Under the pieces are notes generated by a model. That model searched no databases, had not been told where the DNA came from, and saw only the letters and a program-made list of their open reading frames with translations. Position numbers and translations under genes: made by a program. DNA of 64,000 bases. Origin: Candidatus Aenigmatarchaeota archaeon (GTDB lineage Archaea; Aenigmatarchaeota; Aenigmatarchaeia; CG10238-14; SCSR01). Where the stretch lies: the NCBI GenBank assembly GCA_016213525.1, contig JACRAE010000001.1, positions 11,268-75,267 of the forward strand, read 5' to 3'. Below, in pieces: positions 3,795 to 56,530 of this stretch. Each line of letters starts with the position of its first letter. Position 1 is the first letter of the stretch.

Positions 3795-3806
3795 ATAGTT
3801 TTCAGC

Positions 3807-7099: not shown

Positions 7100-7133
7100 A
7101 ATTTATGTTGGTTTTTGAGAAAAATAAGCTAAT

Positions 7134-7185: not shown

Positions 7186-7200
7186 TTTCGACCGTTTTGT
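7171..7200. repeat. phased T-tract cluster A (CCATTTTGGTC-type units)
   Basis: cccATTTTggtctATTTTcgaccgTTTTgt, with tracts starting about 10-11 bp apart. Confidence 0.55.
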
Positions 7201-7340
7201 AATCTATGGAGGCCATTTTCAACAATCTTTAGACTTTTTATAATCTATTTTGCGCTTATAAATATAATCAAGAATACAGAAACTTATATGTAATTGTTAT
7301 TTATATAACAAATATAGATATAGAAACCTGGAAAATCTAT

Positions 7341-7385
7341 CAATTTTAGATCCATTTTAGGTCGTTTTAGGGATAATTTTGGCCT
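7341..7385. repeat. phased T-tract cluster B
   Basis: caATTTTagatccATTTTaggtcgTTTTagggataATTTTggcc has four tracts at about 11-bp spacing. The unit CCATTTTAGGTC resembles the unit of cluster A. Confidence 0.55.
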
Positions 7386-7398
7386 TCTAGTATGGTCG

Positions 7399-7503
7399 AA
7401 GTGAGAGTTTTGTGTTAATATCATAAAAAGTCATATATAGTCATATATTTCTAACGGTGTTATATCATCATGATAAGTCATCACAAAGTGAAAGTGAGAG
7501 TTT
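7399..7503 (+). repeat. pair of perfect 12-mers AAGTGAGAGTTT with related copies nearby
   Basis: Exact copies lie at 7399-7410 and 7492-7503. Degenerate copies are agtgagttta (7531-7540) and aagtgagga (7557-7565). A tandem GTCATATAT(A/T) x2 lies between them at 7430-7449. Confidence 0.7.
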
Positions 7504-7580
7504 AAGGCCATTTTGGATTAAAAACAAGATAGTGAGTTTAACAAGGTTTATATGTAAGTGAGGACATATACAATGTAGTT

Positions 7581-8240
7581 ATGGGGCTCTTTGATCGTCT
7601 AAAAGGCCTTTTTGGCACTAAAAGCGATGTTAAATCGATTGAATCGATGGACCATCGATTTGAATCGATTGGACAGCCAATCCAAGCATCTGAACAAATC
7701 AGAGAATCACCCAAACCTATTGCTATCCCCATCTCTATTATACCTACTAATAGAGAAATAGAGCCATCCGCACCTTCCTATCCAGAAGTTAGTCGAGATT
7801 CCTATCAATTGGGCCTAGCTGCCGGGTATACCGGTCGATCTATAAAGGAAATAGAATCTTCCTTATCGAGAATAGAAGCCCAAATGGTCACTAAAGACTG
7901 GTTTACGGTTCAATTACAGCAAGTTGACAGGAGAATCGAGGATATAGAAAGAGCATTGGGGATAATTAAAGGAGCTATACCTACGATGGAGCAACAGAGG
8001 GCTGCAATAGTCAAGAGGATGCCCCTCACCCAGAGGATGGAGGAGCTTTTGTCCGTGGTCCGGGAATCCAAGGAAATCAGCTTCGCCGACCTGGCCCTTA
8101 AGATGAACATGGACATCTCAGATCTGAGGAGCATGTTGTCGATAATGACAAAGAGGACCAACATGGTCGAGAGATTCCGCATCCATCGGGTCGGTTGGAT
8201 AAGGTATGTTGAGCCAGGTCAAACAAGTTCTCCCTTCTAA
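7581..8240 (+). CDS. hypothetical protein with coiled-coil middle and C-terminal winged-helix domain
   Basis: 219 aa. The N-terminus is an amphipathic MGLFDRLKGLFG. The C-terminal part, LTQRMEELLSVVRESKEISFADLALKMNMDISDLRSMLSIMTKR...VERF, looks like a wHTH. Confidence 0.6.
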   Translation: MGLFDRLKGLFGTKSDVKSIESMDHRFESIGQPIQASEQIRESPKPIAIPISIIPTNREIEPSAPSYPEVSRDSYQLGLAAGYTGRSIKEIESSLSRIEAQMVTKDWFTVQLQQVDRRIEDIERALGIIKGAIPTMEQQRAAIVKRMPLTQRMEELLSVVRESKEISFADLALKMNMDISDLRSMLSIMTKRTNMVERFRIHRVGWIRYVEPGQTSSPF

Positions 8241-8334
8241 AAAGACAGTTTTTTACAGATAGACAAGTGTGTAAGAAGGTATAGAATCTCAATGCCTAAC
8301 CGATGCTTGGAAAAAGTAAAAAGAAGAGGCGAAC

Positions 8335-8469
8335 TTACATCCACTTTGCGCTGCAAGATGGACACGTCGCGATCTTCTCGTTTATACCAGCCTTTACGAA
8401 GACATGGCACTTTTTACAAGGTACGTTGACCTTTGCTATGTATGCACTAAATTTACCCAAATGAATCAC
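8335..8469 (-). CDS. 44-aa zinc-ribbon micro-protein (GTG start)
   Basis: Read by hand: (M)IHLGKFSAYIAKVNVPCKKCHVFVKAGINEKIATCPSCSAKWM. On the minus strand a TATA-like ctttatatagg lies about 35 nt upstream. Confidence 0.3.
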   Translation of the reverse strand: MIHLGKFSAYIAKVNVPCKKCHVFVKAGINEKIATCPSCSAKWM

Positions 8470-8592
8470 CCAACTTATGATATATACACTTCATCCTATA
8501 TAAAGCTTATGGCTTTTTGAATTTTCCAACCATAAAAAATATAGTTCTAAAATATCATAGAATGTCATAGTAAACTCCATCCGGTCCTGTAT

Positions 8593-8895
8593 CTAGTGTT
8601 TGCCCATGGCCCGATCGATTTTTTCCTTCACAGACATAAATTTCAGTATGGACGTCATATCCACACCGGGTTTGATCTTGAACATCCGTATGTTAGAGGG
8701 TTCTAGCTTCTGCTCCTCCACGAAATTCGATAAATATGACTCTAGGAGCCGGGTGACGGTCCTTCTATGCAAGCCTGTTCTGTTGGAAATCTCTGTTGGC
8801 CAAAGCCAGCCGTTTTCAGCCTGTTTCAGGCAGTTTGCGATTTTAATCACGTTCTCTAGCAGTGTTTTCTTCACTTCTTTCTCACCTGTAATCAT
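8593..8895 (-). CDS. small winged-helix DNA-binding protein (100 aa)
   Basis: WLWPTEISNRTGLHRRTVTRLLESYLSNFVEE fits an HTH plus recognition helix. Confidence 0.6.
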   Translation of the reverse strand: MITGEKEVKKTLLENVIKIANCLKQAENGWLWPTEISNRTGLHRRTVTRLLESYLSNFVEEQKLEPSNIRMFKIKPGVDMTSILKFMSVKEKIDRAMGKH

Positions 8896-8913
8896 CTGCG
8901 CAGCGACGCGTAC

Positions 8914-8940
8914 TTGGTCTATAGTTGGTTTTTAGACCAA
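8914..8940. promoter_or_regulatory. inverted repeat TTGGTCTA-n11-TAGACCAA just upstream of the wHTH gene at 8593-8895
   Basis: Perfect 8-bp arms at 8914-8921 and 8933-8940, located 19-45 nt upstream of start 8895. The 9-mer TTGGTCTAT also occurs at 7177-7185. Confidence 0.45.
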
Positions 8941-9068
8941 TTAAAGACAAATCCAGCTACTAACCCCATATGGGCCCTTCTAGGCGCGACAAAACAGCAT
9001 ACTGGAGGTCCGTGGCGGGGTTTCACCTGACAGCTGGCATACTCTCACGAATTTAGCCGGTTTATGGA

Positions 9069-9092
9069 AACGATTGAATCGATTCAATCGTT
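9069..9092. repeat. perfect 24-bp palindrome AACGATTGAATCGATTCAATCGTT
   Basis: The sequence is an exact self-reverse-complement. Its core TTGAATCGAT recurs at 7633-7672. Confidence 0.8.
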
Positions 9093-9142
9093 AGCCGACC
9101 ATCTTCCCTCCCAGGACCTTCATTATCCATGCTGCCTCAGTC

Positions 9143-9862
9143 ATGTTTAATACCGCATTCTCATATTGTCATTGTATGGCGGGCACCGCAGCGGCGACAA
9201 AGGCTTCGGGAGTTCTCCAAAAAGTTCTGATAATTGTTGCATTTAGTGCCATTGTCGGACTGGCCACTTATTACTACCTTGCCTATTCCGAGGAGCTTTT
9301 CTATTGGACTGCCGAAGACCTCACAGGCGAGACAGGAAACACGGTCGGCCAACCGGCTGAGGAGACTTCGGGGCAGCAGGGAGACTCGCAGCAGGGTCTG
9401 ACAACGGCCATATCGCCGGCAAGGGACCTGACGGGCGACTGGGCAGGGACGTTATCCAGGTCCTTTTCAATCAACGAGGAGACTGAGGACGTCCTCTGCC
9501 TCTACACTGGAACGGTCAGGCTGACTCTTCGGCAGCAGGGCAACGGCGTCATAGGCAGCATGAGAATCGATAAAATTACCGTAAAGGACACGCAGAAGCA
9601 GGCGCCAATCGACGAGTATGGACTCCCGGCGGTGGTTATTCCTTGCGGTGTGCCGGTCTCGCCGCCATACCTGGACATTGATTTGGAAGGCACAGCGAGT
9701 TCGTCCACGATAGACTTACAGGGATTTTTCACAAGATTCTCCGGGTCGTTCACGGCAGACCTCATGACGCTCTACCCGGAGCAGTGTGTGTTTGGCTCCG
9801 GCTCGGGGTGCTCGGTGGTGGCCGGCAGTGACAGCATCGTGAAGCTGGCAAAAACAAGCTAG
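9143..9862 (+). CDS. membrane-anchored hypothetical protein
   Basis: 239-aa ORF with an alternative ATG at 9176. A single TM span (VLIIVAFSAIVGLATYYYLAY) is followed by a Gln/Gly/Thr-rich linker and a probable extracellular domain. Confidence 0.55.
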   Translation: MFNTAFSYCHCMAGTAAATKASGVLQKVLIIVAFSAIVGLATYYYLAYSEELFYWTAEDLTGETGNTVGQPAEETSGQQGDSQQGLTTAISPARDLTGDWAGTLSRSFSINEETEDVLCLYTGTVRLTLRQQGNGVIGSMRIDKITVKDTQKQAPIDEYGLPAVVIPCGVPVSPPYLDIDLEGTASSSTIDLQGFFTRFSGSFTADLMTLYPEQCVFGSGSGCSVVAGSDSIVKLAKTS

Positions 9863-10671
9863 CCGGTAATGCTCATTTCGACCTTCTTCAGGTCGACTTC
9901 CCCGGTGTTCTCCCATAGGTTCTTGACATAGGTGTCGAACACCCTGACCAGCCCGGGATCCTCGCTCCAGACCGAGCTGAACGGGAAGTCTTCCTTCTTT
10001 TTCTGGTCGTGGTCCAGCCTGAGCAGGACCTCCTTGCCGTCCACAATCACTATCCTGGGGTGCAGGCTCGCCTCGATTATCTTCAACTCCGCCCCGTGCT
10101 CGACGAACCATTTGGCTTTGAGGTAGTTTTCCTCGTCAATCTCCTGCATGCCCAGCACCCGCACCTTCACTCCCCTCTTGACGGCCGACTGCACGACATG
10201 GGTGAGCTTGGCCGACCTGGAGAAGTCCCTGGTGACCCCGTAGACGTACTTCCTGCTCTTCCCTATCATGTCGCTCGCCTTGTTGAAGAACTCCACCCAG
10301 TTCCTGCCACGGACGGTCCAGATGCCGGTGGACGTCTCGCTGCCCTTCGCGGGCTTGAGGTAGCGGCTCACCTCCTTCAGCCCGGATTTGACCGAGACTA
10401 TGGACCTCTCCTTTTCCTCGATCATCCTCTTCAGGCCGATGTCCGCCGGGACGACCCTGTACTCCTTCGGCTTGCCCTCCGAGACCTCGACGAGCTGCTT
10501 CTCGATAAGGTCCTCGAGCACCCAATAAATTTTAGACTGGGGGACGTCCGCCCTCTTGCTCAGCTCGCCGGCCTTCATGGAGTCGCTCATGGAGAGGGCG
10601 GCGTAGGTCTTGGCCTCGTACTCGCTCATGCCCAGGCCCTGGAGGAACTTGACTATCTCCTCTGGCTTCAT
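9859..10671 (-). CDS. TrmB-family transcriptional regulator
   Basis: From MKPEEIVKFLQGLGMSEYEAKTYAALS...AGELSKRADVPQSKIYWVLEDLIEKQLV (TrmB wHTH) through a C-terminal effector-type domain. I chose ATG 10671 over the longer ORF-track start. Confidence 0.85.
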   Translation of the reverse strand: MKPEEIVKFLQGLGMSEYEAKTYAALSMSDSMKAGELSKRADVPQSKIYWVLEDLIEKQLVEVSEGKPKEYRVVPADIGLKRMIEEKERSIVSVKSGLKEVSRYLKPAKGSETSTGIWTVRGRNWVEFFNKASDMIGKSRKYVYGVTRDFSRSAKLTHVVQSAVKRGVKVRVLGMQEIDEENYLKAKWFVEHGAELKIIEASLHPRIVIVDGKEVLLRLDHDQKKKEDFPFSSVWSEDPGLVRVFDTYVKNLWENTGEVDLKKVEMSITG

Positions 10672-25789: not shown

Positions 25790-25821
25790 GTTATTCCGGC
25801 CGGCGCCAGAAAAATAAAAAG

Positions 25822-25937
25822 TCCCCCGAGCCGGATTTGAACCAGCAACCCTTCGCTTACTGCACGAGCAATTCCTGGCTGACCAATGCCATAGCAAAGA
25901 TCTACAGGCGAATGCTCTACCGTTGAGCTATCGGGGG
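25822..25937 (-). tRNA. tRNA-Tyr (GUA) with an approximately 44-nt intron at the canonical 37/38 position
   Basis: The CCCCCGA/TCGGGGG acceptor gives the C1:G72 archaeal Tyr identity pair. The TTCGC...GCGAA anticodon stem encloses 51 nt beginning CTGTAG. The T-arm is GCTGG-TTCAAAT-CCGGC, and a T-run follows the 3' end. Confidence 0.85.
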
Positions 25938-35264: not shown

Positions 35265-36695
35265 ATGTCATCAGCAGCCCACGTCCAAAAAGACGTTTTA
35301 AGCCAGATTAAGCCAAACGCAGAGCAAAAGAAGAAGATTGAGACCATATCAAGGAAGGCCCTCTCCCTTTCGCAGAAAGCGGCCTCGAAATACAAGGGCA
35401 AGGCCATGCTCGCCGGCAGCGTCACCAGGGGGACATGGCTGCCCGACAAGATGGAGTTCGACGTTTTCATACTTTTCCCGGAGAAGATGTCCGAGTCCCA
35501 GCTAGAGAAGGCCGGCCTGGACGTAGGGAAGAAGGTCATCGACGGCCTGAAGGGCAAGCACGAGGTCTCCTACGCCCAGCATCCGTACGTGTCGGGGATG
35601 GTTGACGGCGTCGACATAGACATAGTGCCGGCGTTCGCCGTGTCATCGCCTGAGAAGATGAAGTCCGCCGTCGACAGGACTCCGTTCCACGTCAGCTACA
35701 TAGAGAAGAACCTCCCGACCAGGCTCGCCGATGATGTCCGTTTGTTGAAGAAGATGCTGAAGAGCAACGGCGCGTACGGCGCGGACAGCAGGGTCGAGGG
35801 GTTCTCTGGATACCTCTGCGAGCTCCTCGTCATCAACTACGGCGGATTCTCCGACCTGATGAAGGCGGCCAGGAAGTGGGAGGCGGGCGAGGTCATAGAC
35901 GTGGAGGAGCTCGTCAAGAAGGCGGACTACGACGCCCTGAAGAAGCAGTTCCTCGGGCAGCCCTTGATTGTTATCGACCCGACCGACAGGAACAGGAACG
36001 TCGCCGCCGCGGTCTCCGCGCGCGCGTTCCTGAAGCTGAGGACCCTCGCAGGCCAGTTCGCGGGCGACCCGTCGGTGGAAATGTTCTTCGAGCCGACCGT
36101 GGGTCCGATCAGCGAGCAGGAGCTCACGGAGATTCTGAAGCTCAGGCGCACCCAGCTGGTCATGCTGAAGTTCCTCCCGCCCAGGGGGCACGAGGAGGTC
36201 GTGTGGCCGCAGATGAGGAAGTTCGCCGAGCGCGTCCAGGGCATACTCGAGGACCCGAACATGGAGTTCAGGATAATGAACAGGGGGATATTCACGGACG
36301 GCTCCTACCTGGCCGGTGTCCTTTTCGAGGTGGAGTCGGCGACGCTGCCGGCGGTCCAGAAGAGGGTCGGGCCTTCGATATTCGACAGGGACGACAGCGC
36401 CAGGTTCGTCGAGAAATACAAGGACGCCGCGCTGGCGGGTCCGTACGTCGAGGGCGTGAACTGGGTCGTGGAGATTAACAGGCAATTTTCGAATCCGAGG
36501 GAGAAGCTGCACGACGCCCTTGCGAGGCCCCTGGAGGAGCTCGTCCAAAGGGGCGTGCCGAAGCTCGTCGCCGAGAGGATAGCGAAGGGCTCCGACGTGA
36601 TATCCGAGAACCACATACTCGTCGAGGAGGCGAGGAGGAACCCGGCATTCGGCGTGTTCCTGAGGAAATTCTTCGTCAAGGACAAGCTGGCATGA
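35265..36695 (+). CDS. cca: CCA-adding enzyme (class I archaeal tRNA nucleotidyltransferase)
   Basis: 476 aa. GSVTRGTWLPDKMEFDVFILF is the nucleotidyltransferase GS...D.D motif. DIVPAF is present and the length is typical. Confidence 0.92.
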   Translation: MSSAAHVQKDVLSQIKPNAEQKKKIETISRKALSLSQKAASKYKGKAMLAGSVTRGTWLPDKMEFDVFILFPEKMSESQLEKAGLDVGKKVIDGLKGKHEVSYAQHPYVSGMVDGVDIDIVPAFAVSSPEKMKSAVDRTPFHVSYIEKNLPTRLADDVRLLKKMLKSNGAYGADSRVEGFSGYLCELLVINYGGFSDLMKAARKWEAGEVIDVEELVKKADYDALKKQFLGQPLIVIDPTDRNRNVAAAVSARAFLKLRTLAGQFAGDPSVEMFFEPTVGPISEQELTEILKLRRTQLVMLKFLPPRGHEEVVWPQMRKFAERVQGILEDPNMEFRIMNRGIFTDGSYLAGVLFEVESATLPAVQKRVGPSIFDRDDSARFVEKYKDAALAGPYVEGVNWVVEINRQFSNPREKLHDALARPLEELVQRGVPKLVAERIAKGSDVISENHILVEEARRNPAFGVFLRKFFVKDKLA

Positions 36696-37879: not shown

Positions 37880-38791
37880 ATGATAGAGGTGATTTTCCTC
37901 GGCACCGTGTCGGGCGTGCCCACAAGGGACAGAAACCACTCGGCCATTATACTGAACCACTACGGCGAGAGGAAGGAGACGATGCTCCTCGACTGCGGCG
38001 AGGGCACGCAGAGGCAGATGCTCATAGCCGGCGTCAACTTCATGGACATAGACAAGATATTCATCACGCACTGGCACGCCGACCATTTCGCCGGCCTCAT
38101 ACCGCTCATCCAGACGATGAACCTTGAGCGCAGGCAGAAGCCCCTGTATATTTTTGCGCCGGAGGCGGAGAGGTTCGTCTCTGACATAGTGGACATGGGG
38201 TACTTCGGCCTGAGGTTCGAGGTCGAGGCCGTCAACCTTCCCTTCGAGGGGGACGAGCCGTACAAGATACTCGAGACCGAGGACTTCGAGATGTACTCCA
38301 CCCCGACGGCGCACACCGTCCCTTCCGTGGCGTTCGCCCTGAAGGAGAAGGAGAAGTGGAGCATAGACCTGGAGAAGGTGAGGAAGATGGGCATGAGGCC
38401 CGGGTCCTGGATGAAGGCACTGAAGGAGAACGGCGAGGCAGAGGTCGGTGGTAAGAGGGTGGAGCTGAAGGACGTCGCATCTTCCGTCCCAGGCAAGAAG
38501 GTCGTCTATACCGGCGACACCAAGCCGTGCAGGAACGTCGAGAGTATATCCGGGGGAGCTGACCTCCTGATACACGACGGCACGTTCCTAGAGGCGGAGG
38601 AGGTCGGCGGGAAGAACCATGCGGACGCGGGCCAGGCGGCCGCCCTCGCCAAGGCGGCCGGCGTGAAGCAGCTGATACTGACCCACGTCAGCCGCAGGTA
38701 CACGGACACGAAGCCGCTCGAGGAGGAGGCGAGGAAGACGTTCGAGAACACGACGGTCGCCCATGACTTCATGGTAGTCATGCTGAAGTAG
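37880..38791 (+). CDS. rnz: ribonuclease Z (tRNA 3' endonuclease)
   Basis: 303 aa. It has the metallo-beta-lactamase motif ITHWHADH and typical short-form RNase Z length. Confidence 0.92.
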   Translation: MIEVIFLGTVSGVPTRDRNHSAIILNHYGERKETMLLDCGEGTQRQMLIAGVNFMDIDKIFITHWHADHFAGLIPLIQTMNLERRQKPLYIFAPEAERFVSDIVDMGYFGLRFEVEAVNLPFEGDEPYKILETEDFEMYSTPTAHTVPSVAFALKEKEKWSIDLEKVRKMGMRPGSWMKALKENGEAEVGGKRVELKDVASSVPGKKVVYTGDTKPCRNVESISGGADLLIHDGTFLEAEEVGGKNHADAGQAAALAKAAGVKQLILTHVSRRYTDTKPLEEEARKTFENTTVAHDFMVVMLK

Positions 38792-38887
38792 TGCCCCCGC
38801 CAGGATTTGAACCCGGATTTGAAGCTTTTCCCCGGCTTAGGCGGCCGGCCGGAAGCTTCCGTGCTATCCAAGTTACACCACAGGGGC
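38792..38887 (-). tRNA. tRNA-Arg (CCG) with an approximately 22-nt intron at 37/38
   Basis: GCCCCTG/CGGGGGC acceptor. The GAAGC...GCTTC anticodon stem encloses 29 nt beginning TTCCGG. The T-arm is CCGGG-TTCAAAT-CCTGG. The 3' end abuts the rnz stop codon. Confidence 0.8.
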
Positions 38888-41677: not shown

Positions 41678-41974
41678 TTATTTCACTTCCTCTGTTATCG
41701 CCTTGAAATGCTCCGGCCTGCTGATTATCTTCTTCACGCTGTTACCGTCTTGGATTTCTATGATATAAGCGTTCCCCCTCTTTCCCACTATGTAGCCGCT
41801 CGTTCCCCTGAAGCGCCTGAAGGGCACGCCCCTGTGGCTCGACGCCTCCTGCATTATGACGACCTGCTGGCCGACGTCGTACTCGGCTAGGAACTTCGTC
41901 AGGGTCGGCCTGAAGCCTACCTTCTGCGCGAACTTCTTCCTTGTTCTCTTTCTGGACCCGTTGGATGTTCCCAT
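41678..41974 (-). CDS. rpl21e: 50S ribosomal protein L21e (eL21)
   Basis: 98 aa, containing SRKRTRKKF...GQQVVI...FRGTSGYIVGKRG. Confidence 0.92.
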   Translation of the reverse strand: MGTSNGSRKRTRKKFAQKVGFRPTLTKFLAEYDVGQQVVIMQEASSHRGVPFRRFRGTSGYIVGKRGNAYIIEIQDGNSVKKIISRPEHFKAITEEVK

Positions 41975-43245
41975 TATATCACCGGATGTATCTTTACTAC
42001 ATCTAGAACTATCTTTTTAACTTTGTTGTTTAAAAGCACAGCTACGGACGGCGTGGTCCTGCCCTCGTCGCCGCTCATGAGCTCCTTGATATACAGGCCG
42101 GCCTGGCCCTTCACCGTGACCCTCAGCTTCTTCGGCCCGGTCTGCTTGAAAACTATCGACAGGACGCCGCGCTTCCTGATGAGGTCCGCCCTCCTGTGGG
42201 CCACCCTGTTCGGCGTCCTTTGCATGACCGTCGCCCCTTTGAGGGACTTTATCTTCGGCAGCAGCTTCTTGTCTATCTTGTCCTCGAACTCGACCTCGGC
42301 CGTGTAGGTCTTGTCGTGCCTGTCGGACTTCGTCTTCACGACGGTCTCCTTGTCGCAGAACGCCAGCCTGCCCACCCTGACCTTTCCGGACTTGTTTATC
42401 GCCCTCTCCAGCTTCTTCAGGTCTATCCTCCTCTTCTTTGGCTTGATGACCTCGATGACGAACGGCCTGTAGTCGAGGCACCTGGCGTCTATGTCCTCCC
42501 TGCCGGCCCCATGGAACGCGTGGTCCTTGCCGTCCGCCGCCTTCGCCGCCGGCTTCCCCACTATCTCATGCACCGACGTCTTGTACCTCTTGCCCTCGCC
42601 CTTGCACTCCACGCACCCTTTCCCGTTGCAGTCCATGCAGACCCACCTCGTCTGCGGGATGCCGCGCACGAGCTTTTGGTAGCCGCCCGATATGTAGAGG
42701 CTCTTCACCTGCAGCAGGACCTCGTCCCTCTTCAGGTCGAAGAAGAACACGATGTCGGGGTCCTTCATGTTGAACTTCTTCCCAGTCAGCTTCTCCAGCC
42801 TCTTGCCCGCCTCCCGGTTGATCTCGGACTTTATCGGCTCTATGTAGTCGATTCCTATCCTGTTCCACAGCGCCTCTTCCTTGTTCTGCATCTCGTCCGT
42901 CGGGGAGCTGCCCACGACGAAGTCTGAGAACTCGTAGCCCGAGACCTTGGCCGCCGCCCTCTTCACCATGGCTTCCAGACCTTCCGAGAAGAAGTCCCCG
43001 CACACCTCGCACCTCGTGGGCCCGTCCGTCTGCAGCTTGGCGTTCCTGAGCCTGTAGCTTCGGAAGTTCGGGGCGTGCACGTTCAGCTTCTCGCCCGAGT
43101 CGATTAAAAACGCCACGTAGTCCCTCGCAGCCCTTCCCCTCTGGGCGTTCGACATCCCCGAGACGAGGTTGCCCATGGTCCTGCCTAGGCAGTTGTCGCA
43201 GACGGGCTCCTTCAACACTTCGATTATTCTTTCTTCGAGTTTCAT
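41974..43245 (-). CDS. pus10: tRNA pseudouridine-54/55 synthase Pus10
   Basis: 423 aa. It has the N-terminal THUMP/zinc region CDNCLGR...CEVCG and a C-terminal pseudouridine synthase core. Confidence 0.88.
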   Translation of the reverse strand: MKLEERIIEVLKEPVCDNCLGRTMGNLVSGMSNAQRGRAARDYVAFLIDSGEKLNVHAPNFRSYRLRNAKLQTDGPTRCEVCGDFFSEGLEAMVKRAAAKVSGYEFSDFVVGSSPTDEMQNKEEALWNRIGIDYIEPIKSEINREAGKRLEKLTGKKFNMKDPDIVFFFDLKRDEVLLQVKSLYISGGYQKLVRGIPQTRWVCMDCNGKGCVECKGEGKRYKTSVHEIVGKPAAKAADGKDHAFHGAGREDIDARCLDYRPFVIEVIKPKKRRIDLKKLERAINKSGKVRVGRLAFCDKETVVKTKSDRHDKTYTAEVEFEDKIDKKLLPKIKSLKGATVMQRTPNRVAHRRADLIRKRGVLSIVFKQTGPKKLRVTVKGQAGLYIKELMSGDEGRTTPSVAVLLNNKVKKIVLDVVKIHPVI

Positions 43246-47337: not shown

Positions 47338-50300
47338 ATGGTAGCTAAGGTTCTTGTTGAAAGGGAGTCCCTTGACGTGGGGAGGGTCGCGCTCTTCGCG
47401 TCGGGCGCATTCGTCCTGATACTTCTGGTGCTGTATTTTTCGGGCGCTTTCCCGGAGCAGTCCGTCCAGAGCTTCCTGGAGAACGCAATTTCCCTGCCCG
47501 GCTACAGGGAGTTCCTCACGGTGAACCAGTTGCTCTCCTTCGGCGTCTTCCAGCACGGGGGCAACGGCTCAGTGGGGTACTACGGCATAAGCTCGTCGAA
47601 CTTCACCAATCAGAACGTGACGAACGCCACGCTCACCGGATACACCTGTTCCGGGACAAGCTGCAACTTCACGATTTTCCTGGACAACGACAACTCCACA
47701 AAAATATCGAACTACCTGAATTTCTCAGACACCATTCTGAACTATGTCCTATACAACGCCTCGGACGGCTCCCTCAGGAACGTGTCTGAGCTCGGCAAGA
47801 TAGGGCAGGGCAGCTGGAACGTCAGCAGTTCCAACCTGAACTTCACCCTGGCAGGAGGGGACGGCTTCGAATACGGCGTGCGCGACTCCCGACCGGGGGG
47901 CAGCTACTGGCTGGACGAGAACGGCTCGCTCTACGGTATGGTCAACATATCGAACGACTTCATCCGCGTCGGTATGACCGAGAGGAACTTGACGGTCTAC
48001 AACTCGTCAAATAAAATAATCTTCAATGCGAGCTTCGACGACGCGGTGAAGGTCGACGGGCAGAACCTGATCTCGCTCTACGGGGGCGGCGCGCAGAACA
48101 AGACCGTGTATTTCTTCGACTGGGCAAGCCAGACGTGGAAGATATGGCAGAAGGAATCGGAAAGTATAGTTGCAACCGGCGGCAACATAACCTACGCAGA
48201 CGGCTACACGATTCACACGTTCACCTCCAATGGGACGTTCAATGTCACGTCAGGTTCTGGCCCGGTCGAATATCTGGTTGTTGCAGGAGGCGGAGGAGGT
48301 CCCGGAAACTACGGAGGCGGAGGAGGTGCCGGAGGCTATCTGGCAGGAACGAACTACACAGTTACGCCTCAGTCTTATGCAATCACCGTCGGCGCCGGCG
48401 GCGCAGGAGGAATTGGCAACGATCAGGACGGGACGAAGGGGAGCAACTCGACTTTCGGCACGATTATCTCAAACGGCGGGGGAGGAGGAGATTCGGACCA
48501 GATTCTGAGCTCTGACAACAACGGCGGCTCTGGGGGCGGGCATAAGGCTACGACCGTGAGGACAAACGGAACTTCGGGGCAGGGATATGGAGGTGGTCTG
48601 CAGGTCGGCGGAGATCCCAACTATGCAAATGGCGGAGGCGGCGGCGCGGGCGAGCAGGGCAACGACGCTGTTTCCACTTCCGTCGCGGGTGCGGGCGGTG
48701 ATGGGTTGCAGTCGTCGATTTCTGGTGTGGCCACGTACTACGCCGGAGGCGGAGGCGGAGGGACTTGGAGCGGCGGGACCGTCGGCGCTGGTGGCTTGGG
48801 CGGTGGCGGCTCTGCTGGTGCGAGCGGCGGGGGGAACGGTGTGTCTGGAACTGCGAACACGGGCGGCGGTGGCGGTTCAGCTTCTTATGGCGGCGGCTAC
48901 TACAACGGTGGCTCGGGCGGTTCTGGTATCGTAATCATAAGATACAATAACACGCACGGAGTCCCCGACTGGCTCGACCCGAGGAACAAGCAGGAGTTCA
49001 AATGGAGGTACGTGCTAAGCCGCGATGCTTATCCGAATATAAATTTGACTTATCTGGTGACGGCGCACGATCCGTTTGTCAGGACTTTCGTGGACTCTGC
49101 CCAGAAACCGATTCTGGCAACCGATTTTTCAGACAACTCCACCTGGACGAAGAATGCCACCAAGGTGTACTTCACGAACGGGTATGTCCAAATAGACACG
49201 ACGACCGCCGGAACAGCCCCTCCGGACAGGATACATAGGAAGCTGCCATTCGAATTATCTGACAGGAGCTGGAAAGTGGATTTGGATATATGGCTCACGA
49301 GCGGCTCGTCGACTCAGCTCGGCCACGCCCTCGTGCTGTCCGACTCAGATCAGCTTCCATGGGGGTCCAATCAAGATTCCATCATGATATCCGGTCAGGG
49401 GGTCAACAGCTATCCAAAATGTCAGATATTTGTGGGATACAAGGACGGTGCGAGTGCTGGTGTACAATCAAGTGCCTTTTACAACCCTGGTACCGGACAA
49501 GGCTGTCAACAGTGGCATTACGTGACCGTCGAGAGGAACAGCCCGACGCGCATCACCCTCAGCGTATATTCCAACCCAGAAAGAACCAATTTAATTTACA
49601 TGGGATCTGACACCATACCGGCAACAATAGATGGACTGTCTTACGTCCAAGTGGTTCATGACGACGTTTACACAAACGAGGCCGGGCGTACGCAGACCAC
49701 CAGGGTGGACAACGTGACTCTATGGGACAGCTTCAACGGCAACAATGTCTCAATATCGTTCTCCCTCCCCGAGAACCGCACGTCCGTCACCACGGCCGAG
49801 CCCGGCCTGGTCGGGTACTGGAACCTCAACGAGGGATTTGGTCTAAACACAAGCGACACGAGCGGTTCTGGGAATACTTTCCTCTTAGGCAACGGGACCT
49901 CTGATTCGAGACCTGTCTGGGTGTCAAACTCGTCGTGTAGATTCGGTAACTGCCTAAGCTTTGACGGCGGTGATCAGGTAATGAAGAACAATCCGTCATT
50001 CCTTTCAGATCAGCAAGGCAGCGTCTCAATGTGGTTCAAATATTATGGGACAGGCGACACAGAGTCCTTGTTCGACGTCACAGACGGAGCGGCTAGCAAC
50101 GTTGATAGCTGGATAGTCTATCAGAGTACGGGGAACATACTACATCCAGCTCTGATTTACAATGACGGATCGGTAATACTGAACTCCCAGATAGGGAGCG
50201 CCATAACCGACACTAACTGGCACCATCTTGTGACAACTTCTGACGGGTCAACGATAAGGGCGTATCTTGACGGCACGGAGAGGTCGCTAACAATAGCCCA

Positions 50301-53300
50301 AGGCAGCAATACCGGACAGTGGTTCGGAGACCTTTCTTTGAACAGGGTAACAGTGGGTGCGCTTCAGTTCGATGTCACTGCCGGCTTCGATGGTCTCGTT
50401 GACGATGTTCGGGTCTATTCCAGACCACTCGGACTGAGCGAAGTCAATCAGCTCTACCTCACCGGCATCAACCAGCAGAAGCCGGGAATCTACTTCACCA
50501 AGAACAACGCGACAGACAACGAGGAGGTCCTGTTCGCAACGACGAACTTCAAGAACATCAACCACACGAGCTTCCAGATATTCTCCAACCAGACGAACTT
50601 CTTCGGCTTCAACTACACGTTCAACTCCACCATGAACCAGAACTTCATGTTCGCCCTCGGTACCATGGGCAGGATGAACACGACGGCCTTCAACCCGCAG
50701 AACAACGCGACACAGTTCTCGAACGAGCTGGTGGAGTCCGTGGCGAACAGCACGCTGACGTGGTATGACATCTTGAAGGGAACGGATTTCGAGGACGACT
50801 TCTCCAGATACTCGACCCAGGCCAGTGCGGACGCCGCGTGGGTCCCGACCGCCGACTACATGAACGTGAGCGTAACCAACGACAACTTGCAGTTCTTCGC
50901 CCAAAACGGGGCGGACAGGAAGATCTACTACGACTTCGGCAACAACATCTCGGACAGCTCGTGGGTTCTGAGGTTCAAAATGCGCTTCAGCAACATCAAC
51001 GCGGCTGCAGTGAACATATTTTTCCTCGGGATTTCCAGTACGACGGGCGCCGCGAACACGAATCAGAATTTCATACAAATAGGACCGTATTCTTCCGACT
51101 CCCTGCCTCACAACATCCTCGCCGGCGCGAACGTGAGGCAAGACCAGTCAACGTACGAGAGCCGACATTCGGACACGTACGTCGCTAACAAAGATTATTA
51201 CGTGGAACTCAGAAGGATTAGTCCCACTCTCGTGGACGCGGTTTGGTACAACGACGACGGGTACACGTCGGTTGCCCTGAAGAGGATAAACCTGACCAAC
51301 AGCGGCATGTCGAGCATAACCGGCCTCAGGTACCTGAAGCTCAATACTTATGTCACCCAAACTGGGAGCCACAGCGGGACGATAGACGACGTGCAGTTCT
51401 GGAACGGCGTGAGCTACGCCACTGGTCCGTCGACCAACGTGACCTTCAAGGGATTAGATGCATCGCAGCACAACTTCAACCAGAAGTTCAACTACGACGG
51501 CGGTGCTGTGGGAATATGGAGGTTGGACGAGGGCTCCGGGCTGAACGCGACGGACATAAGCGGGAACGGGAACACGGTGCCGATAAACGGCGCGACGTGG
51601 ATGAGCAACTCCTCATGCAGGTACGGCTCGTGCCTGAGCTTCGACGGGACCGACGACCACATACCGGTGCGCAGCGACGGGACCGGCTTCGACAGCGTCG
51701 CCTTCTGGGAGAACAAAGACTGGACCATATCAGCGTGGGTGAACAGGAAAGGCACGCCGTCCCCGCAATATTCTATAATATCCTGGGCCGACACATCCGG
51801 ATCCAACGACGGTTGGGGCCTGGAGCTGACAAGCGGTGGTCTCGTCGAATTCGGGGACTACGCCATGTCAACATATATCTACAGCACGTCGGCACTTAGT
51901 GTTGATACGTGGTACCATGTCGTTGTCAGGAAATCTGGAACTACCATAAAAATGTTTGTGAACGGCGTTGAGCAAGGATCCAAATCGCATACATCAACAT
52001 TCACTCAAGGCAGCCAGGAATTCGTAATCGGCGCAAGGAAGGAGCCCGGTTTTGACCGTTTCTGCAAATGTGTCCTCGATGATATAAGGATTTATCAGCG
52101 CGCCATGTCCGACACAGATATCCGTGACCACTACAATCACGAGGTCACGAGGTACTACGACGACTTCGGCACCGCCATCTCAGGAAAAACTTACAAATAT
52201 TTCGGCGTGGAAGACTCGAACACGACGCTGCAGCCGATTACGCCCGCGGGAACGGTGCTTCACTACAGGTTCAACGATAACTCGACCATCAAATTAACGG
52301 ACAGCTCGGGATATGGAAACAACGGATCTACGGTGAGCGGACCTGTATGGGCGGTCAATGGGTCATGTAAATTCGGCGGTTGCATGTACTTCAGCGGCGG
52401 GAGCGACTACATAGACCTGGGAAAGCCGGCTTCTCTCAGCTTACCAGATGCCATGACGTTTGCGGCATGGGTCTATCCGATTGGTACTGGCCAGCACATA
52501 GCCGGCAACTTCGACTCGGCTGGATTTAAGGCACAATGGAACATTCTCTTTTCTGACATATCCTCTGGTAGGTCCCTCATGCGTTTCCAGTCTTGTGGAG
52601 ACTCTGGATCGTGCGCTAATTATCTGAATCTAATAGGAACTTCCGCATATGCGACCTCGAACCAATGGAATCACGTTGCCGTAGTTAGGGACTCGGCTGA
52701 CGGCCAAGTGAGGCTCTACGTAAACGGAATTCAAGACGCGAATACAGCCACATCTTCTTCCAACAAAATAGCTAGCTATTCGAATGTAGGTACGAACGCT
52801 CTAGGGTCGGCCGGCACTTACTCGTCGTTTAAGTTCAGCGGATACATGGACGATGTTATTCTAGTGAACCGGTCGATTTCGACGGAAGAGATTAACAAAT
52901 TATATCTCGGTGGCTACCAGAGGCACGGCGGAGACCTCATTGGATGGTGGAAGTTCAACGAGAACACGACATCGGGCCCGACTTTGGACGGCGGTGGAAA
53001 TGGGAACACCGGAAACACCAGCGGAACGACCTGGATGAACAACGCGTCGTGTAAGATAAACGGGTGCCTGAGCTTCGACGGCGTGAACGATTACGTTAAC
53101 TTCTCGACCAATCCCGTGAAAGACAACCAGGACTACTCATTCTCAACCTGGTTCAAGGTCAATTCCCTCCCTTCTCTGAACGGCATACTGGTAAACACGT
53201 TCAGCTCCGACGTACATCAAGAAGACTTCCAAGTTAGGGTCGAGTCTGACGGTACCCTGACTTTCTGGAAACGCACCGACGGTTCAACTATAGACGCCGA

Positions 53301-54477
53301 CGCCGTGCAATGCGTGGGTTGTATACAGACCGGCGTGTGGTATAATTTAGTGGGGATTTACGATGACGCCTTGGCAAACGACCAGTCCAACCTTCCCGTG
53401 GGCTCGATGAAGCTGTATCTGAATGGCAACCTGACGGTTCAGACCCCGGTAGATACCCAGTATAATTTCGCCAGTCAGGGAAGAGGGGAGATGCAAATCG
53501 GAATCGACGACAGCTCGAACAGTTGGTACTTCAATGGAATCATTGACAATTTGAAGTTTTGGAAGCGCACGCTGACGGCGGACGAGGCTATGAACGAGTA
53601 CCTCGCAAACCAGGACCAACATTCAATTTACGGCAACATACACAGAATCGCCAGCGCGGAAGGGTTGCAGTCCGTGAGCTTCAACCTGACGGACCATGAC
53701 AGCCCGTATCAGAAGGACTATGATCAGAGATCCCTCCTGCTGGGCGTCAGCCAGATCGATACGACCGCTCCCGTCACGACGGTGCAGAGCCCGAGCAACA
53801 CTACCTATTCCGAGAGCTGGGTATGGGCGAACGTCACGGTCAGCGAGGACGTGCCGGCCGTCTACAGGAGCCTCGACTCGGGCGCGAACGTGAGCATGAC
53901 TAACAGCTCCGGGAACTGGAACGGCAACGTGTCGGGAATCTCCGACGGCGCGCACACCCTGATCTTCTACGCGACCGACGCCTCCGGCAACATAGCGGCG
54001 CCCGTGGGCGCGGGCTTCACGGTGAGCGCGACGGTCTCCATAAACATACTCAACATAAACAAGACTTTCAGCCCCCTCGTTCCCTGGTGGGTGGAGTACG
54101 TCAACATATCCGGCTACGCGGCCTACACAAACGGCACGCCTTTCGGCTCCGGGTCAATCAGGATGAACGAGACGAACGGCGGCCGCGAGACGACCCTGTG
54201 CTCGGTCAGCCCCAGCCCGTCGGGCTCCTTCTACTGCAACTTCACGTCGAAGTACCAGGTGGGCGACACCCCGATAGGGATATACGCCATCAGCGGCGGC
54301 ACCATAATCGGGAACGTGACCGGGGTGATGGAGACGAAGCCTAACTACGGCGAGAGGCCCGCGGGCCTGACGTCCAGGTCCGTCCTCGAGACGCCGTTCC
54401 CGATACAGGAGCCGTCCAGCATCATCAGGACGATAGTCGCGCGCCTCACCATATCCCGCGGTCCCGCCGGCAGCTAG
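47338..54477 (+). CDS. giant (2379 aa) membrane-anchored, sequon-rich surface protein: glycine-rich domain plus at least four LamG/ConA-like lectin-fold domains plus Ig-like C-terminal modules
   Basis: Single uninterrupted ORF with an N-terminal TM span (VALFASGAFVLILLVLYF). The Gly-rich domain is encoded at about 48180-48945 (YTIHTFTSNGTFNVTSG..VEYLVVAGGGGG ... GSGGSGIVIIRY). Four LamG-type units lie at about 49800-50460, 51500-52140, 52255-52915 and 52935-53610. Each has W.(L/F)(N/D)E...SC(R/K).G.C.(S/Y)FDG... and ends with DD(V/I)R(V/I)Y-type strands. Confidence 0.9.
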   Translation: MVAKVLVERESLDVGRVALFASGAFVLILLVLYFSGAFPEQSVQSFLENAISLPGYREFLTVNQLLSFGVFQHGGNGSVGYYGISSSNFTNQNVTNATLTGYTCSGTSCNFTIFLDNDNSTKISNYLNFSDTILNYVLYNASDGSLRNVSELGKIGQGSWNVSSSNLNFTLAGGDGFEYGVRDSRPGGSYWLDENGSLYGMVNISNDFIRVGMTERNLTVYNSSNKIIFNASFDDAVKVDGQNLISLYGGGAQNKTVYFFDWASQTWKIWQKESESIVATGGNITYADGYTIHTFTSNGTFNVTSGSGPVEYLVVAGGGGGPGNYGGGGGAGGYLAGTNYTVTPQSYAITVGAGGAGGIGNDQDGTKGSNSTFGTIISNGGGGGDSDQILSSDNNGGSGGGHKATTVRTNGTSGQGYGGGLQVGGDPNYANGGGGGAGEQGNDAVSTSVAGAGGDGLQSSISGVATYYAGGGGGGTWSGGTVGAGGLGGGGSAGASGGGNGVSGTANTGGGGGSASYGGGYYNGGSGGSGIVIIRYNNTHGVPDWLDPRNKQEFKWRYVLSRDAYPNINLTYLVTAHDPFVRTFVDSAQKPILATDFSDNSTWTKNATKVYFTNGYVQIDTTTAGTAPPDRIHRKLPFELSDRSWKVDLDIWLTSGSSTQLGHALVLSDSDQLPWGSNQDSIMISGQGVNSYPKCQIFVGYKDGASAGVQSSAFYNPGTGQGCQQWHYVTVERNSPTRITLSVYSNPERTNLIYMGSDTIPATIDGLSYVQVVHDDVYTNEAGRTQTTRVDNVTLWDSFNGNNVSISFSLPENRTSVTTAEPGLVGYWNLNEGFGLNTSDTSGSGNTFLLGNGTSDSRPVWVSNSSCRFGNCLSFDGGDQVMKNNPSFLSDQQGSVSMWFKYYGTGDTESLFDVTDGAASNVDSWIVYQSTGNILHPALIYNDGSVILNSQIGSAITDTNWHHLVTTSDGSTIRAYLDGTERSLTIAQGSNTGQWFGDLSLNRVTVGALQFDVTAGFDGLVDDVRVYSRPLGLSEVNQLYLTGINQQKPGIYFTKNNATDNEEVLFATTNFKNINHTSFQIFSNQTNFFGFNYTFNSTMNQNFMFALGTMGRMNTTAFNPQNNATQFSNELVESVANSTLTWYDILKGTDFEDDFSRYSTQASADAAWVPTADYMNVSVTNDNLQFFAQNGADRKIYYDFGNNISDSSWVLRFKMRFSNINAAAVNIFFLGISSTTGAANTNQNFIQIGPYSSDSLPHNILAGANVRQDQSTYESRHSDTYVANKDYYVELRRISPTLVDAVWYNDDGYTSVALKRINLTNSGMSSITGLRYLKLNTYVTQTGSHSGTIDDVQFWNGVSYATGPSTNVTFKGLDASQHNFNQKFNYDGGAVGIWRLDEGSGLNATDISGNGNTVPINGATWMSNSSCRYGSCLSFDGTDDHIPVRSDGTGFDSVAFWENKDWTISAWVNRKGTPSPQYSIISWADTSGSNDGWGLELTSGGLVEFGDYAMSTYIYSTSALSVDTWYHVVVRKSGTTIKMFVNGVEQGSKSHTSTFTQGSQEFVIGARKEPGFDRFCKCVLDDIRIYQRAMSDTDIRDHYNHEVTRYYDDFGTAISGKTYKYFGVEDSNTTLQPITPAGTVLHYRFNDNSTIKLTDSSGYGNNGSTVSGPVWAVNGSCKFGGCMYFSGGSDYIDLGKPASLSLPDAMTFAAWVYPIGTGQHIAGNFDSAGFKAQWNILFSDISSGRSLMRFQSCGDSGSCANYLNLIGTSAYATSNQWNHVAVVRDSADGQVRLYVNGIQDANTATSSSNKIASYSNVGTNALGSAGTYSSFKFSGYMDDVILVNRSISTEEINKLYLGGYQRHGGDLIGWWKFNENTTSGPTLDGGGNGNTGNTSGTTWMNNASCKINGCLSFDGVNDYVNFSTNPVKDNQDYSFSTWFKVNSLPSLNGILVNTFSSDVHQEDFQVRVESDGTLTFWKRTDGSTIDADAVQCVGCIQTGVWYNLVGIYDDALANDQSNLPVGSMKLYLNGNLTVQTPVDTQYNFASQGRGEMQIGIDDSSNSWYFNGIIDNLKFWKRTLTADEAMNEYLANQDQHSIYGNIHRIASAEGLQSVSFNLTDHDSPYQKDYDQRSLLLGVSQIDTTAPVTTVQSPSNTTYSESWVWANVTVSEDVPAVYRSLDSGANVSMTNSSGNWNGNVSGISDGAHTLIFYATDASGNIAAPVGAGFTVSATVSINILNINKTFSPLVPWWVEYVNISGYAAYTNGTPFGSGSIRMNETNGGRETTLCSVSPSPSGSFYCNFTSKYQVGDTPIGIYAISGGTIIGNVTGVMETKPNYGERPAGLTSRSVLETPFPIQEPSSIIRTIVARLTISRGPAGS

Positions 54478-55554: not shown

Positions 55555-55626
55555 GGGCTCATCGTCTAGTGGCTAGGACGCGACTCTTACAAAGTCGAGG
55601 CAGGAGTTCGATTCTCCTTGGGCCCA
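55555..55626 (+). tRNA. tRNA-Val (UAC)
   Basis: GGGCTCA/TGGGCCC acceptor, CGACT-CTTACAA-AGTCG anticodon arm, AGGAG-TTCGATT-CTCCT T-arm. Confidence 0.85.
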
Positions 55627-55684
55627 CTGAACCGGAAGCCTGCTCCTCACAAAGGCGTGTCAATCAGGAAAAACAAGTAAAAAT

Positions 55685-56497
55685 ATGAACAACGTAAGGA
55701 TTCCAGAAAGGATAGATCAGGAAGTAGCTTACCTTTGCGGCATGATTTGTGGAGACGGTCATTTGTGCGTTAGACCAAAGAAACATGAGTACTCCATATA
55801 CGTAACTGGGAATTTGAATAATGAGAGGGAGTTCTACGAAGACATTCTGAGTCCGATTTTTGCAAGAGTCTTTGGGATAGAACCTAAGGTGAAGATAAGT
55901 ACGCGGGATAACACTGTGAATTTGATTATCTATTCTAAATCTATTGTAAATTTCTTTTCAGAAAGATGCGGTGTACCAATAGGGAAAAAGGAACATAAGG
56001 TTAGGATACCAGATGTTTTCAGAGACACTGATTTAGTCAGAAGTTTCTTACAGGGCTTCGCTGACGCAGACCTGGGGCTGTGCCTGAAAAGAAGATACAG
56101 GGAAGTCCCTTATTATCCGGTAATAGGTGGCTCGTCGAAGAGTAAGCAGATTATTTTGGATGTATCAGAAGTCCTCATGGGGCTTGGAATAACATTCTCC
56201 TTGAGTTTGGACAGAACCAGTTACGATAATAGAATCAGAAAGGAAACAACGAGAAACATGATTAACATTTACGGGAGGAAGAATGTTTTCCTATGGATGA
56301 AGTTCATAGGTTATAGAAATCCAAAATATCTGAAGATTTTCGAGAAAACAAAAAATATAGCGGGGGTCAGATTTGAACTGACGACCTTTACCCCGCGCCT
56401 AGAGGCGCGTCCGGGTGTCCCAGAGACAACCTATGAGCCCGACGAGCAAACTGTGGCCATTGGGCCACTCCAGGCTGCTCTACCCCGCTATAGATAG
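55685..56497 (+). CDS. free-standing double-motif LAGLIDADG homing-endonuclease-like protein; the 3' end runs antisense through tRNA-iMet
   Basis: 270-aa ORF. Motif 1 is AYLCGMICGDGHL and motif 2 is FLQGFADADLGL, about 105 aa apart. The body (55685 to about 56350) is visibly AT-rich. The last 45 or so codons are the antisense of the tRNA gene. Confidence 0.75.
   Translation: MNNVRIPERIDQEVAYLCGMICGDGHLCVRPKKHEYSIYVTGNLNNEREFYEDILSPIFARVFGIEPKVKISTRDNTVNLIIYSKSIVNFFSERCGVPIGKKEHKVRIPDVFRDTDLVRSFLQGFADADLGLCLKRRYREVPYYPVIGGSSKSKQIILDVSEVLMGLGITFSLSLDRTSYDNRIRKETTRNMINIYGRKNVFLWMKFIGYRNPKYLKIFEKTKNIAGVRFELTTFTPRLEARPGVPETTYEPDEQTVAIGPLQAALPRYR
56358..56489 (-). tRNA. initiator tRNA-Met (CAU) with three putative introns (D-loop, 37/38, anticodon-stem/variable-loop junction)
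   Basis: The minus strand reads AGCGGGG-TA-GAGC-AGCCTGG[..GTGGCCCAATGGCCAC..]TTT-GCTC-G-TCGGG-CTCATA[GGTTGTCTCTGGGAC]A-CCCGG-[..CGCGCCTCTAGGCGCG..]AGGTC-GTCAG-TTCAAAT-CTGAC-CCCCGCT-A. It has the A1:U72 pair and the GGG/CCC anticodon stem. The total is 132 nt against about 75 nt expected, and a T-run follows. Confidence 0.7.
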
Positions 56498-56530
56498 TAA
56501 AATTAGTACTTCCAAACTCATATATATCGT

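Follow-up and report, generated by a model that had tools for sequence, protein, structure and literature searches.

The window analysed here, a 64-kb stretch of contig JACRAE010000001.1, carries on the minus strand of positions 56358 to 56489 what we read, with a probability of roughly 0.9, as a functional initiator tRNA-Met gene interrupted by three archaeal introns of the protein-spliced, bulge-helix-bulge (BHB) type. The sequence anatomy, the exact product, the splice motifs, conservation and the recurrence of the introns in relatives carry this reading. A tRNA gene with three introns is of a kind already known, as multi-intron tRNAs occur in Thermoproteales and in DPANN archaea. An earlier note, made from the letters of the window, had placed an initiator tRNA-Met gene with three introns at this locus, and the positions and lengths that it gave for them were borne out by the product, the motifs and the orthologues.

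Exon-intron anatomy and the spliced product

The elements on which the earlier note had relied were all found on the minus strand: an AGCGGGG/CCCCGCT acceptor stem with A1:U72, a CAT anticodon in a CTCATA...A loop, a TCGGG/CCCGG anticodon stem with three G:C pairs, a normal GTCAG-TTCAAAT-CTGAC T arm, and three inserts, namely a GTGGCC-CAAT-GGCCAC hairpin in the D loop, 15 nt after position 37, and 23 nt with a CGCGCC-TCTA-GGCGCG hairpin before AGGTC. Read 5' to 3', the precursor runs AGCGGGG-TA-GAGC-AGCCTGGAG, the TGGCCCAATGGCCACAGTT intron, T-GCTC-G-TCGGG-CTCATA, the GGTTGTCTCTGGGAC intron, A-CCCGG, the ACGCGCCTCTAGGCGCGGGGTAA intron, and AGGTC-GTCAG-TTCAAAT-CTGAC-CCCCGCT-A. The insert sizes are exact: 19 + 15 + 23 nt add up to 57 nt, and 132 minus 57 is 75. 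The coordinates of these and of other features of the window are collected in Table 1.

Excision of nt 23-41, 59-73 and 80-102 of the precursor yields the 75-nt sequence AGCGGGGTAGAGCAGCCTGGAGTGCTCGTCGGGCTCATAACCCGGAGGTCGTCAGTTCAAATCTGACCCCCGCTA, a perfect cloverleaf that ARAGORN classified as tRNA-Met(cat), and taking out one or two of the inserts alone gave no correct ARAGORN call. The spliced anticodon loop is CTCATAA, of 7 nt (CUCAUAA in RNA), and the product carries A1:U72 and three consecutive G:C pairs, G29-31:C39-41, in its TCGGG/CCCGG stem. A1:U72, G29-31:C39-41 and the loop CUCAUAA are identity features of archaeal initiator tRNAs. Apart from compensatory changes in the T stem, the product equals intron-less 75-nt genes of relatives, for example L128 and L143 in our numbering of related loci. 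This equality fixes the exon-intron boundaries and argues that the match is not due to chance. We also considered a 21-nt boundary for intron 1 (precursor nt 22-42, leaving a 73-nt product). It was ruled out because the 10-nt D loop AGCCTGGAGT shared by all intron-less orthologues listed is recovered only by the 19-nt excision.

Table 1. Positions in the window of the initiator tRNA gene, its parts and flanking signals, the endonuclease gene and two further intron-bearing tRNA genes
Feature	Position	Strand	Basis or remark
Precursor initiator tRNA-Met coding region, 132 nt	56358..56489	-	A1 at 56489, discriminator A73 at 56358; CCA not encoded
Exon 1, tRNA positions 1-20a: AGCGGGGTAGAGCAGCCTGGAG	56468..56489	-	Same as 5' end of at least 110 metagenome initiator tRNA genes
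Intron 1, 19 nt, D-loop position 20a/21: TGGCCCAATGGCCACAGTT	56449..56467	-	Orthologue comparison and BHB motif
Exon 2, positions 21-37, with CAT anticodon: TGCTCGTCGGGCTCATA	56432..56448	-	
Intron 2, 15 nt, canonical position 37/38: GGTTGTCTCTGGGAC	56417..56431	-	Orthologue comparison and BHB motif
Exon 3, positions 38-43: ACCCGG	56411..56416	-	
Intron 3, 23 nt, position 43/44: ACGCGCCTCTAGGCGCGGGGTAA	56388..56410	-	Orthologue comparison and BHB motif
Exon 4, positions 44-73: AGGTC, GTCAG-TTCAAAT-CTGAC T arm, CCCCGCT-A	56358..56387	-	
Candidate archaeal TATA box: ATATATAT	56520..56527	-	-38 to -31 from tRNA position 1; read from sequence; conserved in L094
Oligo-T tract, candidate archaeal transcription terminator: TTTTTTGTTTT	56345..56355	-	Starts 3 nt past discriminator; read from sequence
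Free-standing two-motif LAGLIDADG endonuclease gene, intact, 270 aa	55685..56497	+	Pfam LAGLIDADG_3, E=1e-8
tRNA-Tyr(GTA), canonical intron of 44 nt	25821-25937	-	BHB register; mislabelled by ARAGORN
tRNA-Arg(CCG), canonical intron of 22 nt	38791-38887	-	BHB register; mislabelled by ARAGORN

Introns of the initiator tRNA gene in relatives

Metagenome contigs were scanned with the 22-nt exon 1, which gave at least 120 loci. Together with the window and L013, the scan loci provided a set of at least 111 genes, at least 75 of them unique, with lengths between 75 and 223 nt. Intron positions were mapped automatically; the automatic parse went wrong for L171, L181, L090 and L169 as well as for the final two introns of L114, and L171, L181 and L114 were re-read by hand. 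Among the matches listed, 27 unique genes are intron-less and 48 bear introns, and the intron-less D arm GAGCAGCCTGGAGTGCTC, as excision predicts, is present in 27 unique genes. Certain positions appeared as intron hot spots: again among the matches listed, 29 unique genes have an intron at 37/38, 14 at 20a/21, 12 at 29/30, at least 5 at 43/44 and 5 at 59/60.

All three intron positions of the window gene, two of them non-canonical, recur in relatives with unrelated intron sequences and the same geometry. The 20a/21 inserts of at least 14 unique relatives (11-41 nt) all have a 3/4 central helix and a 3-bp outer helix. At 43/44 the inner hairpins are CGCGCC/GGCGCG in the window, CAAGTT/AACTTG in L104, CGGA/TCCG in L172 and GAAGCTGAA/TTCAGCTTC in L171, and those of L013 and L087 are likewise unrelated, while the 3' end GGG(N)-NN, the partner of A38-C41, is retained throughout. 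Exons can be identical across such differences, as in L104 with three introns and L128 with none.

A relative, L094, shares synteny with 5.2 kb of the window, with 84% identity, and 131 of the 132 nt of its tRNA gene are the same, the sole difference falling in the loop of the intron-3 hairpin. Identity along the alignment is highest at the tRNA, with values of 0.75-0.86 in the flanks, and the synonymous divergence (dS) between the two in the neighbouring gene is 1.46. A near-complete match despite such a divergence means that the introns are as constrained as the exons or that the gene was homogenised recently.

Further features of related genes were noted. The 170-nt initiator tRNA gene of L114 (Ga0190363_1000198, 260-429, plus strand) can be parsed into six introns, at 20a/21, 29/30, 37/38, 47/48, 59/60 and 64/65, with a BHB-like junction at each and a 75-nt product that ARAGORN called tRNA-Met; a 2014 review puts the maximum at three introns per tRNA gene. 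Right after it, at 430-456 on the same strand, stand a second T arm and 3' acceptor strand (TGGGGTTCAATACCCCACCCCGCTA) and then a T-run; this fragment might be left over from recombination or integration, or serve as an alternative 3' exon. Four introns (29/30, 37/38, 53/54 and 60/61) were read from the sequence of L129 (from 2130, plus strand) and the identical L187, where the 3' acceptor strand CTCCGCT produces one non-standard acceptor-stem pair. In many related initiator tRNA genes, e.g. L082, L097 and L148, C33 (loop CCCATAA) replaces the near-universal U33.

Splice motifs, processing and alternative readings

The junctions were set by the intron-less orthologues, without any splice-motif model, and were then scored for the motif. 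In the BHB geometry used, each strand read 5' to 3' consists of a helix, 4 nt of central helix, a 3-nt bulge cut after its second nucleotide, and a helix; the register was confirmed on the canonical intron and on the other intron-bearing tRNAs of the window. Each of the three motifs has two 3-nt bulges. For intron 1 (20a/21), an outer helix of 3 bp and an inner hairpin of 4 bp enclose a central helix with 3 of 4 pairs (a G.A mismatch). For intron 2 (37/38), the 5-bp outer helix is the anticodon stem, the central helix is fully paired (CTCA:TGGG, 4/4) and the inner helix has 1 bp. For intron 3 (43/44), a 1-bp outer helix and a 6-bp inner hairpin flank a fully paired central helix (ACCC:GGGT, 4/4). 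Both flanking helices thus reach 2 bp in intron 1 only; intron 2 corresponds to the relaxed form hBH and intron 3 to the relaxed form HBh', forms which are described in the excerpted text of PMC5829648.

The earlier note had proposed folding each junction into a BHB or relaxed motif. All three fit, and such fits are rare in controls. When the introns were shuffled with the junctions fixed, the observed geometry was reached in 0.3% of shuffles for intron 1, 1.2% for intron 2 and <0.005% (<5e-5) for intron 3, and only 9 of the 4437 possible junction pairs in the gene scored as well.

The motifs of introns 2 and 3 are mutually exclusive, because intron 3 pairs A38-C41 with the intron sequence GGGT, and intron 2 needs an intact anticodon stem. 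Therefore, splicing must pass through successive folds. With a predicted energy of -13.8 kcal/mol, the intron-3 motif is more stable than that of intron 2 (-5.8 kcal/mol), and it is the only one of the three to appear in the minimum-free-energy fold of the whole precursor, there with a 3' bulge of 4 nt. On these thermodynamic grounds, intron 3 would leave before intron 2. The intron 1 motif re-pairs A14-C16 with G22-U24, so that it, too, needs a fold other than the mature D arm.

In the processing pathway that we propose, transcription would start at the AT-rich TATA-like element, whose placement suggests a short 5' leader, and would end at the T-run. The 5' end would be trimmed by RNase P and the 3' end by a tRNase Z-like enzyme. 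The tRNA splicing endonuclease (EndA) would cut each intron at the two 3-nt bulges flanking the 4-bp helix, an RtcB-type ligase would join the exons, and the CCA-adding enzyme would supply CCA. The window has genes for a CCA-adding enzyme (35265-36695, plus strand), a tRNase Z-like metallo-beta-lactamase (37880-38791, plus strand) and Pus10 (41974-43245, minus strand). These three genes lie near each other and near tRNA genes, and no CCA is encoded in the window tRNA genes that were read. As for the type of endonuclease, the earlier note held that such introns need an alpha2beta2 or epsilon2 enzyme. This is too narrow for DPANN archaea. In ARMAN-1/2, disrupted tRNA genes go with an epsilon2 EndA (Fujishima 2011, Hirata 2012 and Kaneta 2018, as excerpted in PMC5829648); according to the same excerpt of Kaneta et al. 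2018 (PMC5829648), several DPANN lineages have an alpha4-type EndA with an 'L3' loop, linked to many disrupted tRNA genes.

Several points weigh against a functional gene, whose splicing is predicted from sequence. None of the three motifs has the textbook strict hBHBh' form, owing to the G.A central mismatch, the 1-bp inner helix and the 1-bp outer helix described above, and the minimum-free-energy fold shows just one of them. A tblastn search with the Methanocaldococcus jannaschii EndA (sequence checked against PDB 1A79) gave no match in the window or in any of 200 related loci, and neither EndA nor RtcB was found among the 54 open reading frames (ORFs) of the window by Pfam, so that the competence of the enzymes for relaxed motifs is assumed. 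Finally, the unspliced gene had no match to the Rfam tRNA model, either at the gathering score or at E<=10, and nothing was reported by ARAGORN at default settings. With one intron allowed, ARAGORN gave a tRNA-Pyl(cta) with a 50-nt intron, a spurious call with a poor D arm that is incompatible with the orthologues. In the ARAGORN check proposed in the earlier note, the unspliced gene is uncalled or miscalled, and the spliced 75-nt sequence is called tRNA-Met(cat).

The failed searches and the relaxed motifs would also be expected of a decaying pseudogene, that is, a tRNA gene in which insertions have piled up and which has ceased to be expressed or spliced. We regard this as very unlikely. The exons show no defects and equal those of intron-less orthologues that look functional, all but one of 132 nt are kept against a relative whose flanks are 75-86% identical, each insertion lies within a BHB motif, and a TATA-like element and a T-run flank the gene. 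Moreover, no second initiator tRNA gene was found in the 64-kb window by ARAGORN, the Rfam tRNA model or a similarity search with the tRNA. If this gene is the only one of its kind in the organism, all translation initiation would hinge on triple splicing, as the earlier note had inferred.

Alternatively, the introns might be the inserts at 37/38 and 43/44 only, with the 19-nt D-loop hairpin staying in the mature tRNA. Among the three motifs, that of intron 1 is indeed the weakest: the central helix is 3/4, the G.A mismatch is next to the 5' bulge, and 23% of shuffles reach a central helix of this quality. Nevertheless, the chance that the hairpin is retained appears slight. The D arm that excision predicts is exact in the 27 unique orthologous genes among the matches listed, and at least 14 unique relatives have inserts of 11-41 nt at this site, where L175 has one of ~360 nt encoding a LAGLIDADG protein. 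A 29-nt D loop is also expected to disrupt the interaction of G18-G19 with the T loop.

Hardly credible is a third reading, in which the stretch is primarily the 3' coding end of the plus-strand LAGLIDADG gene and its likeness to a tRNA is incidental: the ORF does run antisense through all 132 nt and is open in L094 as well, but homologues end ~10-20 residues past the IGxSNP motif, which makes the 45-residue tail an add-on, 46 stop-free codons are expected by chance in an estimated ~11% of cases, the sole nucleotide difference from L094 alters an amino acid (L to R), and the tRNA features are far too complete for an accident. Actually, the coding sequence and the three-intron tRNA gene can coexist as overlapping genes on opposite strands.

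The neighbouring LAGLIDADG endonuclease gene and the wider setting

The endonuclease gene lies between a tRNA-Val gene (55555-55627) and the initiator tRNA gene, and its last ~45 codons run antisense through the entire tRNA gene. Its motifs are LCGMICGDG and LQGFADADL; the acidic residues are kept (GDG 23-25, DAD 125-127), and D24 and D127 are nearly invariant in the alignment of homologues. The protein is weakly similar to intein endonuclease domains, to PDB 2dch ('putative homing endonuclease') and to I-DmoI. Compared with its L094 orthologue, the ratio of nonsynonymous to synonymous divergence (dN/dS) is 0.06 across a dS of 1.46. A single-sequence protein search with the endonuclease recovered only the window protein itself and a close orthologue resembling the L094 protein, and a profile search reached further. 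The closest other homologue sampled from the protein database has 31% identity and is encoded inside a 23S rRNA gene.

Homologues of this endonuclease occurred close to initiator tRNA genes. In at least 11 of the loci collected by their tRNA, a homologue lies 0-77 nt from the initiator tRNA gene, upstream on the same strand or convergent, and all 11 tRNA genes bear introns. To count this linkage, we took, among the matches listed, the unique genes flanked on either side by 800 nt or more and all genes with an adjacent endonuclease. An adjacent endonuclease gene was present for 10 of the 27 intron-bearing and for 0 of the 14 intron-less unique genes (Fisher p=0.0085, for lineages that are not independent). 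L145 has an endonuclease gene and a 29/30 intron, both of which L125 and L198 lack; the exons of these loci are identical and their flanks syntenic. In the window lineage, the sole close relative, L094, has the endonuclease gene and the introns alike. When sampling started from the protein, the profile search yielded four homologues at five loci, and in every case the endonuclease gene precedes an initiator tRNA gene by 36-73 nt. A 29/30 intron is present at four of these loci, and the fifth, L204, is intron-less with a divergent D arm. A further homologue, P0026 (L208-L210), adjoins an intron-bearing tRNA-Tyr(GTA) gene with an overlap of ~15 nt, and in L210 two such tRNA-Tyr genes flank it.

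Endonuclease ORFs were also found inside introns of the initiator tRNA gene. In L154 (Ga0180300_10013397, 2006-1239, minus strand), a 693-nt intron at 37/38 contains a same-strand two-motif LAGLIDADG ORF and has a 10-bp inner helix. In L175, a 435-nt gene on the minus strand has a ~360-nt intron at 20a/21, the site of the window's intron 1, which encodes a single-motif LAGLIDADG protein of 123 aa and has a 6-bp inner helix. A group I intron was rejected for both, as neither had an Rfam match and both have BHB ends. The 24-nt D-loop introns of L141/L156 and L190 share the ends of the L175 intron (AGA...CCCAAA) and look like derivatives of the L175 type that lack the ORF.

The endonuclease gene and the introns might form a functional pair, an idea that we put forward tentatively, as a possibility short of even odds. 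The endonuclease or its ancestors would recognise the uninterrupted, almost invariant initiator tRNA gene. Introns, as the only way to break the DNA site without changing an essential tRNA, would protect it, and double-strand-break repair driven by the endonuclease would carry them into new genomes. The pattern suggests DNA-level homing as a route of intron gain. Domestication of the endonuclease as a helper for precursor folding or splicing seems less likely than a homing pair. Three points temper the homing link: the initiator tRNA gene that adjoins the endonuclease gene in L204 has no intron, the lineages sampled are not independent of one another, and a dN/dS of 0.06 across a dS of 1.46, a mark of strong purifying selection, indicates long vertical maintenance, which is atypical of a purely selfish endonuclease.

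In archaeal rRNA, too, BHB introns encode LAGLIDADG homing endonucleases (of the I-DmoI, I-PorI and I-Tsp061I type). The window resembles those systems in its two-motif LAGLIDADG neighbour, in the homologue inside a 23S rRNA gene, and through the L154 and L175 ORFs inside introns of the initiator tRNA gene. By contrast, the endonuclease gene of the window is free-standing and overlaps the tRNA gene, and the three introns have no ORF. In phages, a free-standing endonuclease can act with an ORF-less intron in 'collaborative homing' (F-CphI with the psbA intron, mobE with the nrdB intron), and SegB lies in the T4 tRNA cluster. What the window shares with them is a free-standing endonuclease gene adjoining a gene in which one or more introns could split the recognition site; the phage introns are self-splicing ones of group I and the enzymes are of the GIY-YIG or HNH type, whereas the window has protein-spliced tRNA introns and a LAGLIDADG protein. 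An element integrated with attachment-site repeats was rejected for the window, which contains no partial tRNA copy of at least 12 nt elsewhere, except one 17-nt near-match in a coding gene (E=0.1); L114 does have the extra T-arm/acceptor fragment described above.

The EF-1alpha gene, 1.1 kb away, has 78-79% identity to its best matches, which are metagenome-assembled genomes of Candidatus Aenigmatarchaeota; an exact-match search with it returned no record. Therefore, the host is an Aenigmatarchaeota-like DPANN archaeon and belongs neither to Thermoproteales nor to ARMAN. The window also carries an RNA polymerase operon, a 5S rRNA gene, the gene for threonyl-tRNA synthetase (ThrRS) and six other tRNA genes, two of them with canonical introns, which ARAGORN labelled Asn/Phe or '???'. 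An ORF of 2379 aa (47338-54477, plus strand) has four Laminin_G_3/ConA-like stretches, a glycine-rich domain and a sialidase N-terminal domain; it has diverged in L094 (69-83% nucleotide identity), and its product is probably a surface or adhesion protein as in episymbiotic DPANN archaea. Positions 1-9900 hold nine consecutive ORFs without a Pfam match, and G+C is 0.48-0.52 over 4-12 kb compared with ~0.57 elsewhere; 1-9900 is possibly a lineage-specific or mobile region.

Multiple-intron tRNAs have been described for Thermoproteales, with a stated maximum of three introns (PMC4033280). In the extracts of PMC4033280 and PMC4090602 that relate Sugahara et al. 2008, they resemble the window gene in their relaxed HBh'/hBH motifs and in rapid gain and loss between relatives. 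Unlike them, the window gene has a DPANN rather than a crenarchaeal host, encodes the initiator tRNA and lies beside a LAGLIDADG gene. The disrupted tRNAs of DPANN archaea, as far as the excerpt of Kaneta et al. 2018 (PMC5829648) goes, are alike in coming from ultrasmall archaea and in having non-canonical and multiple introns missed by standard finders, but that excerpt names no Aenigmatarchaeota genome. With the present gene, the range of three-intron tRNA genes takes in an Aenigmatarchaeota-like lineage and the tRNA that all initiation requires.

The sole initiator tRNA gene visible in the window escapes ARAGORN and the Rfam tRNA model. Therefore, without multi-intron models, genomes of this lineage will seem to have no initiator tRNA; incomplete tRNA sets in DPANN genomes are likewise taken to point to undetected disrupted genes in the excerpt of Kaneta et al. 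2018 (PMC5829648).

The mechanism of tRNA intron transposition was called unknown in a 2014 review (PMC4090602), and in the literature searched we found no description of endonuclease ORFs in archaeal tRNA introns or of endonuclease genes beside intron-bearing tRNA genes. Relatives with 0 to 6 introns in an otherwise nearly invariant gene provide a natural series for intron gain and loss. If the proposed pairing is true, it would represent an archaeal 'collaborative homing' and a DNA-level mechanism of tRNA intron gain, and it would account for why so many introns have collected in one gene, with three in the window and as many as six in L114. The recurrent, tight link to LAGLIDADG genes makes the movement of protein-spliced tRNA introns a testable question.

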